A stretch of 64,000 bases of DNA from a virus, in UHGV virus genome UHGV-0179428, one strand, 5' to 3'. The position numbers and the translations under genes are program-made. Within the stretch, counting starts at the first letter, position 1. Every line of letters starts with the position of its first letter. Shown here piece after piece: positions 38,791 to 44,532 of this stretch. The notes below the pieces were generated by a model. That model worked only from the letters and a program-made list of their open reading frames with translations, was not told the DNA's origin and did no database searches.

Positions 38791-39321
38791 TTAGGCTGGA
38801 GTAAAACCGTCAAGTTCACTATTTAACGTTGACATGTCCGTAACAACACGTAGCGTCAGTGTGCACAAAGACCCAGGTTGAAATTTGAGATTACCACCTT
38901 TAACGTTACAGTTATACAGGGCTGTAGATTCTGTTACTGCGCCTTTAGCGATTATAACCTCACCTACCGCAAACTCATCGTCAACCCAACCGCGTTTCTG
39001 AATCAGCTCGTTGAGAATAGCGACAATCTGATCGTTATTCTTTTCAAGTTCTTCAGCAGTGGCTACATTGTAAGTTTGTGGGCCTAAAACATTAACCCCG
39101 GGAATTCGGGTATAGTGGAATACTTTAGAGCCTGTGAAATTTGCAGATGTGGGCCGTGCGGTGAGCGTTACTTGCGCGTTGCGGGAACTACCAGGTTCTG
39201 TAGGCTGGTAGTTGGCAACGCCTTCACCAAAGTCAACATCCTCTAAAGTCAGTGGTGCTTGAAGCTGATTGTTTTTAAGGTTTATTAAATCAATCAGCTG
39301 TTGTTCAGTGCTTTTAGCCAT
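38791..39321 (-). CDS. paralog-family protein A (C-terminal ELDGFT motif), hypothetical virion-associated
   Basis: ORF track; own terminator; N-terminal LIDLINLKNN and C-terminal ELDGFTPA shared with paralogs. Confidence 0.75.
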   Translation of the reverse strand: MAKSTEQQLIDLINLKNNQLQAPLTLEDVDFGEGVANYQPTEPGSSRNAQVTLTARPTSANFTGSKVFHYTRIPGVNVLGPQTYNVATAEELEKNNDQIVAILNELIQKRGWVDDEFAVGEVIIAKGAVTESTALYNCNVKGGNLKFQPGSLCTLTLRVVTDMSTLNSELDGFTPA

Positions 39322-39344
39322 GGTAGCGATTTCTCTATCGTGAA

Positions 39345-39376
39345 CTAAAAGATCTGGGGGTTAACACCCCCAGACG
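39345..39376 (-). terminator. hairpin terminator
   Basis: CTGGGGG-ttaaca-CCCCCAG hairpin with T-rich sequence on minus strand. Confidence 0.5.
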
Positions 39377-39389
39377 GTTCTTTTGGGAT

Positions 39390-39920
39390 TTAGGACGTAA
39401 AGCCGTCCAGCTCACCGTTGGTGGTAGCCAGGTCAATACGTTTGTCTTCCACTTTCGGGGTAATAACAAACGTTGCCATTACACCTGGTTTATAACGGAG
39501 GTTCTTTTCAGTAACAGTACACGTTACCGTACGCAGAGTAACGTTTTCATGTTCGTCTTTCTGGTCTTCGGTAGAATAAGAAACGTCCGCTGGATGAATA
39601 GCATCGTCCGGTTTAACTTTATTGATGTAATATTGTAACCATGCGCGCAATTCGTTTTGATCTTCCCAACGAGACAGATCGTCAGTTAGTTCAATACGAC
39701 CTACAACACCCGGTTCCAGACGATCGTAATGCAGTTCGATTGCGCCTTTGAAATTCTCAGAACCTGGTAGTGCAGTCATGGTAACTTTGGTATTCTTACC
39801 TTCGCCTTCCAGCGCAGTAGGGAGACCAAAGGACACTTCTTTATCAGTAATCTGATGTGGTAGCTCAGTGTTAGCAGCATTATAAAGCGCGACCAACATC
39901 ATCTGGTTAGTAGCGGCCAT
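39390..39920 (-). CDS. paralog-family protein B (C-terminal ELDGFT motif)
   Basis: ORF track; C-terminal GELDGFTS; own hairpin terminator. Confidence 0.75.
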   Translation of the reverse strand: MAATNQMMLVALYNAANTELPHQITDKEVSFGLPTALEGEGKNTKVTMTALPGSENFKGAIELHYDRLEPGVVGRIELTDDLSRWEDQNELRAWLQYYINKVKPDDAIHPADVSYSTEDQKDEHENVTLRTVTCTVTEKNLRYKPGVMATFVITPKVEDKRIDLATTNGELDGFTS

Positions 39921-39949
39921 TATCTTAGATCCTTAATAATACGTTTTAA

Positions 39950-39985
39950 AGAAATATCGGGGGAGGACACCCCCCCCCGATTCAA
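39950..39985 (-). terminator. hairpin terminator
   Basis: ATCGGGGG...CCCCCCCCCGAT hairpin with T-rich run on minus strand. Confidence 0.5.
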
Positions 39986-40528
39986 TTACTCTTTAGGACT
40001 CGGTGCAGTGAAGCCCTCGAGCTCACCATCCAGGCTGTCCAGAGCTACCTTCTGAGGAGCCGGTACACGGTACTGGTAATTTGCAATCATACCAGCCTGG
40101 AACTTGATATGACCTTCTTTTACCTGTACAGTATAGTTGAAACCGCCTTCACCTGCATCAGTTTTCTGGATTTCCAGTTCTTCTGCGATAAAGGCATCAT
40201 CGACATAACCTTTAGTAATCATGTCGGCATTCAGTGCAGCTACGATAACATCGTTAGCGACATCAGTAGTTGCATCAGTAACGGTTTTCACACCGATTAA
40301 AGATTCGGCGACCAGACGGATATAATGGAACTCTTTGCTTCCGGTAAAGTTAGCGCTTTCGTCTTTTGCAGTCAGGACAACTTTAGTATTACGGTTGTCA
40401 TCTTCGCCAGAAGGACTATAAAGTTCTACAGTACCGAAATTAACATCGCCAACAGTCAGTTGGTGTTCCAGGGAACCGTTTTTGGCATTAACGGCGTCAA
40501 TAAGTTGCTGTTGAAAAGCTTTAGCCAT
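39986..40528 (-). CDS. paralog-family protein C (C-terminal ELEGFT motif)
   Basis: ORF track; GAGGTAAAAACG-ATG; C-terminal GELEGFTAP. Confidence 0.75.
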   Translation of the reverse strand: MAKAFQQQLIDAVNAKNGSLEHQLTVGDVNFGTVELYSPSGEDDNRNTKVVLTAKDESANFTGSKEFHYIRLVAESLIGVKTVTDATTDVANDVIVAALNADMITKGYVDDAFIAEELEIQKTDAGEGGFNYTVQVKEGHIKFQAGMIANYQYRVPAPQKVALDSLDGELEGFTAPSPKE

Positions 40529-42440: not shown

Positions 42441-42545
42441 TTATAGAAACCAGAAAAATTCGTATCCACGTTTTTCGTCTTTACGTTTCCGCCCAGACGT
42501 TAACGCCTTCCACAATAACGCTAAGAGTTTAGCAAACCAGTTCAT
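42441..42545 (-). CDS. small protein (34 aa) translationally coupled to lysozyme gene
   Basis: Manually translated MNWFAKLLALLWKALTSGRKRKDEKRGYEFFWFL; ATGA overlap with stop of GH108 gene; not in ORF track. Confidence 0.4.
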   Translation of the reverse strand: MNWFAKLLALLWKALTSGRKRKDEKRGYEFFWFL

Positions 42546-43132
42546 TTTACTAACCCCGCCTTCGCCACATAATCCGGCATTTCCCTGAACACACGTGCGT
42601 ACCAACCGTAAGCGAATTTTTCATTCTTCTTACGCTTTTCGGAGATTTCTGTGTAGTAAGTTACCTGGTGTGAGATTAATGCAAAGATTAAGATGCCTAA
42701 TCCTTCGTCTTTACGGTATTTCAGATAAGCATTCAGGGCACCTAGCGTTTTAGGCCCCATCCCCCCGTCGGTGTCAATATCTGCGTAAAGCTTCCCTTCG
42801 TTATTTAAAACGTTGAGAATACGTTGTAACGATTTCACACAGTTAACGCGGCCAGAGTTAATAGCAAAATCAAACATCCGGTCTGCGAGCAAGGGTGAGA
42901 TAGCGAAAATCTCATCGAGTTTAAGTTTCTTCCACCAACCGCGATCGTAAATATCAAACGCCTGCGCACGGGTCAGATCCTTCATTCTTCCTTTATACCC
43001 GTATTCGCGTGCAGTTGTTAGTGTTACACCGTGACAGGTTTCCCCACCTTTATCGTCGGGGTCGTTCACGTACCCACCTTCTAAATCTGTTTTCGAAGCA
43101 ATAATACCTTCTTTAGTCCAACGTTCGGCCAT
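42542..43132 (-). CDS. GH108-family lysozyme with C-terminal peptidoglycan-binding domain (probable endolysin)
   Basis: ORF track; EGGYVNDPDDKGGETCHGVT matches the GH108 N-terminal signature; GMGPKTLGALNAY resembles PG_binding_3; AAGAGGAG RBS. Confidence 0.75.
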   Translation of the reverse strand: MAERWTKEGIIASKTDLEGGYVNDPDDKGGETCHGVTLTTAREYGYKGRMKDLTRAQAFDIYDRGWWKKLKLDEIFAISPLLADRMFDFAINSGRVNCVKSLQRILNVLNNEGKLYADIDTDGGMGPKTLGALNAYLKYRKDEGLGILIFALISHQVTYYTEISEKRKKNEKFAYGWYARVFREMPDYVAKAGLVK

Positions 43133-43154
43133 TTTGTTTAACTCCTCTTTTACA

Positions 43155-43192
43155 CAAAAAAAGAAAAGAGGGTGGGATTACCCCACCCTGTC
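43155..43192 (-). terminator. rho-independent terminator
   Basis: AGGGTGGG-attacc-CCACCCT hairpin followed on minus strand by a T tract. Confidence 0.6.
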
Positions 43193-43193
43193 G

Positions 43194-43670
43194 TTATTTC
43201 TTCTTAGCGCGTGATGGCTTAGCTGGCGGTGTTTCAACAGTCGGTTTACGCGCAACACGCACTGTAAAACCACCGACCCAGGTTAGGCACTCAGGACGGA
43301 AGAAAATGCCGTGCTCGATTGCACTGCCGTCCAGCGGTAACTCACCAACCTGCTCTACCCATACGTCGTCTTCAGTAAGGGTTAAGCCATACTGCTCGTT
43401 AATTACAGGCAACAGGTCCGCAGTCGTGGTTGCTGTCTCAACTAACAGTTTCGGCAATACGTTGAGGAAATACAAACCTGCATCGATACGATTATACTGG
43501 AACGTTTGCTTATTAGCATAACCGAGATTCTTAACCGCCACAACCGTAATTTCGGTGTTGTACGCACCGGTACTTACGACGGGCTCACCCAATGTAACTT
43601 TGGCGGTGTCAAGCTCAGCGTCTGGGTTAGCCTTTTTAATAAGGTCGAAGATAGTTTCTTGACTGGTCAT
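43194..43670 (-). CDS. paralog-family-related protein, hypothetical
   Basis: ORF track; N-terminal IFDLIKKAN...KVTLGEP pattern. Confidence 0.65.
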   Translation of the reverse strand: MTSQETIFDLIKKANPDAELDTAKVTLGEPVVSTGAYNTEITVVAVKNLGYANKQTFQYNRIDAGLYFLNVLPKLLVETATTTADLLPVINEQYGLTLTEDDVWVEQVGELPLDGSAIEHGIFFRPECLTWVGGFTVRVARKPTVETPPAKPSRAKKK

Positions 43671-43683
43671 TACTGTAATCCTC

Positions 43684-44532
43684 TTAATCTAAGAATCCCG
43701 GTAAGACCGAATTAGTTTTAGCTAATTCAATCTTCGACTTCGGACGATCGGTTCCGTTAAAGTGGATTAACAGATTACCGGTCAGGTTAGCACACAGTCC
43801 ACTGAGTGCGAGTACCAGCACACGCGTGTACTTCGTATTTGCGCCTTCGTAACCTGCGGTAGGGCCATCGTACATAACCTTGGCACCGTAGAGGTTATTA
43901 GCAGCGTTTTTAGGTACGCTTACCCATTTCTCATCAACGACGTTAACCAGTTTAGTGGCTAACTCAGCCAGGTCGACAGTGTCGTTAATGGTAATCGGAT
44001 CGAGGTAATCTTTTTCTGCGGTGAAGTCAATTGGATAAGAATAAACCGCTGCGTTACCTTTCTTAGTGGACGGATACTCTACCAGGTTTTCTAATTGAGT
44101 AACAGGTAACAGTTTAGCCAGATCAATAGGATCGCGTAGCGTAAGTGTCACCTCGCCACACCATTCGTAGGATTTCTCATTAGCGGTAAACTGATGGGTT
44201 TCACCTTCAACTTTCGCATCAATGATATCCGACGGCAGGATATTTAAATCGTATTTTGCGTTGATTGCATTAAGCAAATCTGCAGCGGTTACAACACCAT
44301 CGTTACCGAATACCAACTCACCTGTTAGGTATTCGGGCAAGTTACGACGATGATAAGTCACAGTTAAAGTAGTAGACTCATCGCCTTTGAGTTTAGAAGT
44401 CAGAACCACCTGGGTATCAACCCCAGTACCAGTAGGTTCGCCGATATCAACATCACTGAAGGTCAATGGCGGAACAATATTGTTTTCAGTGTTGATGAGT
44501 TTTAGCAGTTTCTGTTTTGACGTAAGAGACAT
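43684..44532 (-). CDS. paralog-family-related protein (282 aa), hypothetical
   Basis: ORF track; N-terminal LLKLINTENN...DVDIGEP and C-terminal LPGFLD. Confidence 0.7.
   Translation of the reverse strand: MSLTSKQKLLKLINTENNIVPPLTFSDVDIGEPTGTGVDTQVVLTSKLKGDESTTLTVTYHRRNLPEYLTGELVFGNDGVVTAADLLNAINAKYDLNILPSDIIDAKVEGETHQFTANEKSYEWCGEVTLTLRDPIDLAKLLPVTQLENLVEYPSTKKGNAAVYSYPIDFTAEKDYLDPITINDTVDLAELATKLVNVVDEKWVSVPKNAANNLYGAKVMYDGPTAGYEGANTKYTRVLVLALSGLCANLTGNLLIHFNGTDRPKSKIELAKTNSVLPGFLD

Follow-up and report, generated by a model that had tools for sequence, protein, structure and literature searches.

The 64,000-nucleotide stretch of the virus genome UHGV-0179428 analysed here (the window, 64 kb) encodes seven proteins, A to G, which are almost certainly paralogs of one family, DUF7941 (Pfam PF25613), that is, 'paralog family B' of phage SPN3US and proteins of the phiKZ gp126/gp127 and Goslar gp22/gp23 type. 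All seven open reading frames (ORFs) are present at the following coordinates, all on the minus strand (lengths in amino acids, aa; N-domain, the N-terminal domain of the family):

38791-39321, minus strand: A, short-form DUF7941 protein, 176 aa; N-domain followed by a C-terminal tail with ELDGFTPA as its end; additional, third copy of the A/B/C locus
39390-39920, minus strand: B, short-form DUF7941 protein, 176 aa; tail IDLATTNGELDGFTS; conserved clade-wide
39986-40528, minus strand: C, short-form DUF7941 protein, 180 aa; tail VALDSLDGELEGFTAP; slot allelically variable
43194-43670, minus strand: D, N-domain-only DUF7941 protein, 158 aa; basic tail ..PSRAKKK, without the linker motif
43684-44532, minus strand: E, long-form DUF7941 protein, 282 aa; Pfam match over residues 2-259
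53175-53693, minus strand: F, DUF7941 N-domain protein, 172 aa; differing C-terminal motif ..ALTFGGRQ; stop codon overlapping the start of the next gene
59725-60291, minus strand: G, DUF7941 N-domain protein, 188 aa, GTG start; tail ..AVLTFEVPDDD..; upstream of a long tail fibre gene

Pairwise BLASTP comparison distinguished three tight groupings, namely A/B/C (expectation value, E, of 7.6e-40 for A-C, 2.6e-17 for A-B and 1e-17 for B-C), F/G (1.5e-29) and E, which bridges the groups (A-E, 2.5e-7; E-F, 2.3e-6). The weak matches of D to the other six (best E 0.048) are what could be expected if the resemblance were due to chance or composition. However, the curated gathering score of the Pfam profile (27 bits) was exceeded by all seven proteins (A 41.6, B 39.6, C 41.7, D 105.3, E 179.1, F 66.2 and G 68.4 bits), with D among the highest, and the precomputed Pfam annotation of the public copies concurs. 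The independent PHROG profiles are in agreement, as all seven match PHROGs 1037/2935/3589 ('virion structural protein'), the best match for A/B/C being phrog_4862. A profile built from A-G and run against the six-frame translation of the window recovered the same seven genes, and no eighth DUF7941 copy was detected in this search at E<=10. Together with a predicted fold that fits phiKZ gp127, described below, these results refute an origin of the resemblance by chance, the probability of which is regarded as practically nil. Since BLASTP and profile scores are significant, the conserved columns, the Pfam scores and the PHROG matches bear out the proposal of a first-pass annotation of this DNA that at least seven genes share an N-terminal pattern.

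In that pattern the conserved columns include the N of L-I-N, an invariant Y-x-R and one invariant Asp, and in the predicted structure it covers the first strands as well as helix 1 (..L-I-x-L-I-N..). The model of C, computed from an alignment of 39 sequences, has a predicted local distance difference test (pLDDT) score of 90.6; residues 1-155 fold into an N-domain of mixed alpha/beta type, with a predicted content of 2 helices and 7 strands, and the tail is a coil (pLDDT ~68). The AlphaFold2 model of E, from 59 sequences (pLDDT 76.9), shows two folded domains, a low-confidence linker (134-160) and a disordered tail (260-282), with pLDDT values of ~80-89 in the N-domain, 51-61 in the linker and 75-88 in the C-domain, in agreement with the published description of the family as an N-domain, a disordered linker and an optional C-terminal globular domain. 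A Foldseek search of the C model against the PDB gave no match; nonetheless, the N-domain fold matches phiKZ gp127 residues 1-150 (PDB 9xqd) with 15% identity at the fold level, and gp127 is the only solved relative of this alpha/beta domain. In BFVD the C model had 62 matches, all named ones being jumbo-phage proteins, some of them annotated as tail fibre or tail protein. The Ig-like or jelly-roll fold that had been suggested for the family was contradicted by these models, which give an alpha/beta N-domain, and by the top PDB matches, among which there is no Ig or jelly-roll entry. Weak secondary high-scoring segment pairs raised the possibility of an internal duplication, in which the long forms would have acquired their C-domain as a decayed second N-domain; this was rejected after hhalign comparison of the C-domain and N-domain alignments (P = 0.24 over 20 columns).

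The layout of E comprises the N-domain (1-133), a linker (134-155; IDLAKLLPVTQLENLVEYP), the C-domain (156-259) and a clade-specific extra tail (260-282; ..IELAKTNSVLPGFLD). Further support for its assignment comes from phmmer matches to PHIKZ127 in PDB 9xqd (1.5e-6), from 44.5% identity to SPN3US_0138 and from the match to Goslar gp22 (3e-12). The Pfam match of D spans residues 2-143, its nearest SPN3US relative is SPN3US_0141 (40% over the N-domain), and the protein is 92-100% conserved across the clade. For A, phrog_4862 was matched at 8.9e-39, SPN3US_0160 is 40% identical and an exact public protein exists (DAG31023.1). F is 34% identical to G and matches SPN3US_0122 at 8e-26, while G shows 45% identity to the same protein (E 2.5e-44) and has a GGGAGG ribosome-binding site ahead of its GTG.

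The presence of ELDGFT at the C-terminus of several of these genes was correctly noted before: A ends in ELDGFTPA, B in ELDGFTS and C in ELEGFTAP, a variant, VLPGFLD, ends E, and inspection of the seven sequences showed no such motif in D, F and G. The element is under strong conservation in relatives. The tail ..L(S/D)GLEGELDGFTAP is kept in C orthologs of merely 51-64% overall identity, in which ..V-A-L-S-G-L-E-G-E-L-D-G-F-T-A-P is almost invariant, and a terminal NGELDGF was found in SPN3US_0160, 0145 and 0148 as well as in all four tandem short forms of phage STsAS. In SPN3US_0145 and 0148 (470-498 aa) the motif is separated from the N-domain by a cargo domain. In the long forms the segment just past the N-domain reads L-a-x-h-h-x-x-x-x-L-x-G-L-x-Y-P, exemplified by IDLAKLLPVTQLENLVEYP in E and LDLANIIKVTNLGNLTY in Goslar gp22. 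A profile made from long forms exclusively aligns the tail of Goslar gp23, QLATVLADNVADGFVKP, to the linker consensus dLadlvknteLsgLkyp, and the Pfam and PHROG long-form profiles extend the alignment of B through its tail, reaching residue 173 at position 169 of 276 in Pfam DUF7941. Based on these alignments, ELDGFT can be equated with a conserved post-domain linker motif of DUF7941, L-x(5-8)-[EV]-L-[DEP]-G-[FL], hereafter the 'plug'; the short forms would be the same chain severed a few residues past G-F. E seems to carry a second, plug-like tail, ..KIELAKTNSVLPGFLD, which is conserved in the clade and is not present in SPN3US_0138, phiKZ gp127 or any other long form examined. The Goslar preprint describes no sequence motif, the word 'motif' occurring 0 times in it (bioRxiv 10.64898/2026.04.21.720040).

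Natural fusions provide a second line of evidence. An exhaustive search of 1.84 billion representatives returned 2,389 clusters at E<=1e-3. The 150 clusters with the best scores yielded 146 representative sequences, and in 59 of these a single polypeptide has 2-6 near-complete N-domains arranged in tandem. The pattern [LIVM]xG[FLYM], counted 8-20 residues past the end of an N-domain (background 3.5%), occurs in half of the inter-domain linkers (32/64, P ~1e-29; e.g., ..ISLAEDIIQPVLDGFIYG.. and ..VNLAGLLDAIMDGFVYN...), in 40 of 92 terminal tails (P ~1e-33) and in 19 of the 59 other cases (P ~7e-14). By Rosetta-stone logic, tandem fusions with the motif at the junctions imply that N-domains are arranged head-to-tail, and so they support, without proving docking, a chain built by plug and socket.

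Based on the computed family membership, domain anatomy, gp127 fold match, motif conservation, tandem fusions, gene pairing and terminator-like hairpins, we infer docking, a role for each paralog, a location in the virion and effects on expression. The N-domain (~145 aa, alpha/beta) would be the 'socket', followed in most members by a flexible segment with the plug peptide, and the plug of one protomer would dock on the N-domain of the next to form head-to-tail chains; AlphaFold3 models in the Goslar preprint place the disordered linker of one protomer on the N-domain of the next (bioRxiv 10.64898/2026.04.21.720040). A/B/C (socket and plug), orthologs of SPN3US gp160 and of the Goslar gp23 type, could be the abundant chain subunits or extenders. 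E (socket, plug, C-domain and second terminal plug), a long form of the gp127/gp22 type, may anchor chains at the outer baseplate and could branch them. D, with a socket only, might be bound yet be unable to extend the chain and would therefore act as a cap, whereas F and G (socket plus an L-T-F-type tail) may adapt the neighbouring fibres that carry an N-terminal module (N-module) to the same network. Separate hairpins after C, B and A, combined with variable copy number, would set the stoichiometry of the subunits. Altogether, this mechanism and the roles assigned to the paralogs are considered moderately probable.

Several points weigh against this interpretation. The docking of the plug derives from the AlphaFold3 models of a preprint and from the fusion argument, and the roles of D, E, F and G are deduced from their domain content. 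The equivalence of tail and linker is positional and transitive: a 19-column profile of short-form tails recovered its own training set and a vestigial ORF near G (E 0.56), and found neither long-form linkers nor functional fibre N-termini. As regards the RNA polymerases of the phage itself, the hairpins are predicted terminators. In SPN3US, paralog family B, gp141 and gp160 included, was found in purified tailless particles and was hence assigned to the head (PMC5694885; PMC5105663); no DUF7941 density was seen in Goslar, and copy-number estimates could be inflated by co-purifying self-assembled filaments (bioRxiv 10.64898/2026.04.21.720040 for the density); in phiKZ, only one N-domain has been modelled (PMC13250141).

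The virion location of DUF7941 proteins is consequently contested between the head and the baseplate's periphery, and A-G might be head-associated proteins, either decorating the capsid or internal, instead of baseplate filaments or adaptors. The SPN3US tailless mutant 64_112(am27) retains the paralog family, with more than 300 copies of gp141 and gp160 per capsid by its densitometry (PMC5694885; PMC5105663), and the PHROG category of the matched families is 'head and packaging'. Conversely, the model of the phiKZ outer baseplate includes gp127 (PDB 9xqd), the Goslar reconstruction leaves the DUF7941 proteins unmodelled, A-G all lie among fibre, baseplate and lysis genes, and the family comprises fusions to receptor-binding or glycosidase domains and proteins annotated as tail fibre. 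Moreover, purified gp22 self-assembles into filaments, which may co-purify with heads, and this possibly reconciles the two sets of observations; the authors of the Goslar preprint state that their own preparation captured other large assemblies (bioRxiv 10.64898/2026.04.21.720040). A head location of A-G is considered unlikely on this evidence, and an association with the baseplate is preferred.

The earlier claim that two of the copies precede fibre-like genes was confirmed for both F and G. The features concerned are:

55084-59526, minus strand: tail fibre downstream of G, 1480 aa; Pfam Gp34_trimer (1.9e-19), Peptidase_S74 (5e-10) and Phage_fibre_2; many PHROG tail-fibre families
52558-53178, minus strand: fibre-type protein coupled to F, 206 aa; N-module ..KVRVHELPTL..; C-terminal part matching phrog_33169
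59661-59762, minus strand: vestigial ORF over the 3' end of G, 33 codons in the +1 frame; MTTQLRKARLQELDGFTGNGG.. / MTTQLRKARLQELDGFTGNGGQNKLLSRLSKPRS; own GAGG ribosome-binding site

The first ~45 aa of the 1480-aa fibre form the N-module (MAKAVKKIRLHDLRPY..), which is common to the 206-aa protein and SPN3US_0123 (fibre vs SPN3US_0123, 4.5e-11; 206-aa protein vs fibre, 9e-6, and vs SPN3US_0123, 1.4e-7). Downstream of this fibre follow a gp38-type adhesin (PF05268, 5e-70), a second Gp38_N protein and then F, whose TGA overlaps the ATG of the 206-aa protein (ATGA). The succession of an F/G-type gene and a gene with the shared N-module is found twice in the window, in SPN3US and in the relatives L006 and L008, with overlapping stop and start. 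This pairing, the homology to virion proteins and the placement of gp127 in the baseplate lend support to the earlier suggestion of diversified structural adaptors, decoration or fibre-associated proteins. As a separate observation, the region 53782-59526 (minus strand) constitutes a T-even-style host-recognition cassette in a phiKZ-like jumbo phage. Its fibre has Gp34_trimer and an intramolecular chaperone, Peptidase_S74, and is accompanied by a complete gp38 adhesin, which has Gly-rich motifs, and by another Gp38_N protein of 167 aa; the cassette at the equivalent position of SPN3US differs.

The position of F and G directly upstream of a fibre gene each, with F translationally coupled to its partner, would also be compatible with non-structural chaperones that assist the assembly of the adjoining fibres and do not enter the virion as adaptors. 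In line with this, SPN3US gp122, the ortholog of F/G, was undetected in wild-type virions, and F has a weak match to Phage_TAC_19 (E 0.011). This match, however, extends over no more than 21 residues and, at 16.4 bits, falls short of the cut-off of 27; G has none, and no tail assembly chaperone profile of Pfam scored above threshold for either protein. In addition, both contain a full DUF7941 N-domain, all ten Goslar DUF7941 proteins were found in virions, and SPN3US gp122 was found in particles of one mutant. A chaperone function is therefore judged quite unlikely, and F and G are preferentially regarded as virion adaptors.

The vestigial ORF has a GAGGTTyCAGATG start in common with a 153-aa gene of relative L006, with DNA homology fading after ~60 nucleotides. 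It is best read as a truncated gene of the SPN3US_0123 type (153-156 aa), which follows the G orthologs in relatives, and looks like a recombination scar left by the swap of an ancestral fibre module for the T4-like fibre. A programmed +1 frameshift that would fuse G to the out-of-frame ELDGFT was evaluated and rejected in favour of a gene remnant, since relatives have the full 153-156-aa gene from the same ribosome-binding site and ATG. The tails of F and G are of another type, ..[AV]-L-T-F.., which is also found in SPN3US_0122, in representative P0229 and, in repeated form, past the final N-domain of tandem proteins. The C-termini thus show another recurring element, which takes the form [AV]-L-T-F-[GED] in proteins of the F/G type and that of short repeats such as LLxDGG or ITGFD..LTGFD..ITFFD behind the final N-domain of the tandem proteins P0222, P0225, P0230, P0235, P0239 and P0242; it may be a distinct terminal attachment motif.

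It can be speculated that plug and socket, in the form of the ELDGF-type peptide and the DUF7941 N-domain, respectively, are elements of general use that make up a modular kit for swapping receptor-binding fibres and retuning filaments. In such a kit, the plug would be located behind the N-domain, behind a cargo domain, as in SPN3US gp145 and gp148, or at two sites of one protein, as in E, which might be a branch point. The fibre N-module (K-x-R-L-H-E-L-D-S-Y; in the vestigial ORF at G, R-L-Q-E-L-D-G-F-T) would serve as a further plug, by which fibres dock on sockets of the F/G type. Gene gain, loss and allelic replacement would be the route of change, with the scar at G, the 1-4 copies of A/B/C and the C slot (53% identity vs 97% in its neighbours) as examples. 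The part concerning fibres is speculative because the short-form-tail profile misses functional fibre N-termini, and the proposal as a whole is offered tentatively, as one that is doubtful in its general form.

The separate hairpin terminators that the first-pass annotation assigned to each of the tandem genes were recovered directly 3' of the stop codons of C, B and A, and one follows D as well:

38734-38764, both strands: bidirectional hairpin terminator after A; 13-bp stem with a T run on both strands; fold z = -6.4
39352-39375, minus strand: hairpin terminator in the B/A gap; 10-bp stem (6 GC pairs), T-rich tail; -22.9 kcal/mol, z = -4.2
39956-39981, minus strand: hairpin terminator in the C/B gap; 11-bp stem with 8 GC pairs; -24.8 kcal/mol, z = -3.0
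43169-43189, minus strand: hairpin terminator after D, closing the E-D pair; 9-bp stem, then CTTTTCTTTT; z = -4.0
44693-44666, minus strand: further G+C-rich hairpin upstream of E, from the terminator scan

The scan found 16 sites compared with 6.0 +/- 2.6 in shuffled sequences, and the G+C-rich hairpins with T tails have fold energies of -20 to -26 kcal/mol (z -3.0 to -6.4). The hairpin at 38734-38764 also ends a convergent plus-strand gene (38040-38711). A promoter consensus scan was at chance level (11 sites vs 11.4 expected) and did not include a dedicated search for sigma-70 or phiKZ-type promoters.

The proteins A-G are public as DAG31023-31027 and DAG37535 ('MAG TPA: Putative virion structural protein [Caudoviricetes sp.]') on a contig of 223,448 bp. 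Among cultured phages, SPN3US-like Seoulvirus and Erwinia jumbo phages come closest, with ~45% protein identity, and a megablast search of the region against 50,697 phage records, a set from which the phage itself is absent, gave only one 400-nucleotide match at 75%. Two stretches are collinear with SPN3US, one comprising DUF488, the G-type gene and the fibre genes, and the other beginning with the E-type gene, followed later by a GH108 endolysin, DUF1353 and a peptidase-like gene, and continuing through an opposite-strand gene and the A/B/C-type gene to DUF4376 and a pair of radical-SAM genes. A-G have genes for fibres, baseplate and endolysin as neighbours, and the phage is phiKZ-like by its collinearity with SPN3US; chimallin is not encoded in the window, although no search aimed at it was made. 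The adjoining radical-SAM genes (35300-37529, plus strand; 307 and 440 aa) occupy the same position in SPN3US (gp163 and gp164), STsAS and close relatives. Upstream of E, a 373-aa ORF is flanked by two paralogs of 142-143 aa (44700-45131 and 46343-46771, minus strand), which share 33% identity (E 4e-30) and match phrog_8484.

The comparison of copy number that had been recommended was carried out at the A/B/C locus and revealed 1 to 4 copies among relatives: one in SPN3US, two in L009 and L010 (both without the A copy), three in the window and four in STsAS. Diverse homologs were obtained from SPN3US- and Goslar-seeded searches and from the exhaustive representative search, since word-indexed searches were saturated with near-identical members of the clade. 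Between L009 and the window, B is 97.7% and E 96.8% identical, whereas the protein in the C slot is only 53% identical; the 90%-identity cluster of B has 431 members, and the C allele of the window (39986-40528; L009 counterpart 6001-6531) is a minority type among 66 orthologs. The C slot thus appears to have undergone allelic replacement. Near-identical contigs of 220-227 kb are present by the dozen in assemblies of isolates that bear the labels Salmonella (with many serovars), E. coli, Shigella and Enterobacter. This points to a jumbo phage that is either maintained in cultures, in a carrier state or by pseudolysogeny, or often co-isolated.

The family profile also matched ~70-aa repeats (a helix and a beta-hairpin, the first half of the N-domain) in P0224, a 1,496-aa surface protein of Mollicutes-type appearance; A and C have weak matches to Pfam 'Spiralin', and DUF7941 was reported in Spiroplasma Spaid-like proteins (PMC13375240). 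In view of the P0224 repeats and the Spaid-like proteins, and contrary to the Goslar preprint, the domain is not strictly chimallivirus-specific.

DUF7941 proteins rank with the most abundant constituents of chimallivirus particles, but both their place in the virion and their role are in dispute. The paralog set predicts an extender, a bivalent long form, a cap and a fibre adaptor, and the near-identical phages from Salmonella, E. coli and Shigella assemblies provide material for testing these predictions. If true, the plug-and-socket logic would explain the diversification of host-recognition hardware and could guide host-range engineering.

With regard to known systems, phiKZ gp127 ends the gp139 band in the outer peripheral baseplate according to a 2026 atlas (PMC13250141; PDB 9xqd), and gp126-gp127 fits baseplate density according to the Goslar preprint (bioRxiv 10.64898/2026.04.21.720040). 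Of gp127 only the N-domain has been placed experimentally, and phiKZ reportedly has only 2-3 members compared with seven in the window. The phiKZ proteins gp131-135 and SPN3US family C are likewise paralogs of the baseplate or fibres that have an N-terminal attachment domain in common and vary at the C-terminus, but they differ from A-G in the domain concerned (phrog_2163/7449/7557/8078) and in size (400-1,728 aa). A-G do not belong to that family, as they match other PHROGs and their profile misses the ORFs at 18122-33160. These plus-strand ORFs represent a second paralog family in the window: four consecutive virion proteins (1440, 1394, 1728 and 401 aa) that share an N-terminal domain, phrog_2163, and correspond by position and size to SPN3US gp167-170, of which gp168-170 are the published family C, phiKZ gp131-like.

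In SPN3US, paralog family B (gp83, gp138-154, gp161, gp237 and the candidate gp122) was described in 2016/17 and termed potentially the largest paralog family of any phage (PMC5105663; PMC5694885); its members were all detected in virions by mass spectrometry, and gp141 and gp160 are present in more than 300 copies per capsid (PMC5694885). At least 12 profile matches were found in the corresponding SPN3US region, a lower bound taken from loci L001 and L002, without L003 and L004. Named by their original locus tags, the collinear orthologs are SPN3US_0138 for E (44.5%), SPN3US_0160 for A/B/C (35-44%) and SPN3US_0122 for F/G (33-45%). The two phages differ in the tandem array of 17 genes, gp138-154, which is represented in the window by E and D only; in the single gp160-type gene vs three in the window; and in the genes that follow the fibre adaptor candidate, a 156-aa protein and a 1005-aa tail protein after SPN3US gp122 vs the T4-like 1480-aa fibre and gp38-type adhesins after G.

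The family was named DUF7941 in Goslar, where ten members were all found in virions, at ~580 copies of gp22 and ~2,140 copies of gp23 per virion; purified gp22 formed filaments, and a 'fibre cloud' anchored to the baseplate was proposed (bioRxiv 10.64898/2026.04.21.720040). Goslar gp22 resembles E (3e-12) in its layout of N-domain, linker and C-domain, and gp23 resembles C (4e-7), both being forms of 180 aa with N-domain and linker; a GH108-type endolysin adjoins the family genes in Goslar and window alike. On the other hand, identity is only ~30%, gp22 is devoid of the second plug-like tail borne by E, and no copy in the window is fused to a carbohydrate-binding, hydrolase or leucine-rich repeat domain, unlike members of the Goslar family. 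The window has three tandem gp23-type genes, and at the corresponding position in Goslar, beside gp22 and the endolysin, only gp23 was seen. The expansion pointed out in the first-pass annotation is thus real as to the seven paralogs but is a clade-wide trait and not special to UHGV-0179428 (~20 members in SPN3US, 10 in Goslar, 7 in the window). A-G are further members of an already known family of virion structural proteins of phiKZ-like (Chimalliviridae-type) jumbo phages, and to this known kind of system the present analysis adds the plug motif, the support from tandem fusions for chaining, a predicted division of labour and the natural variation in copy number and alleles.

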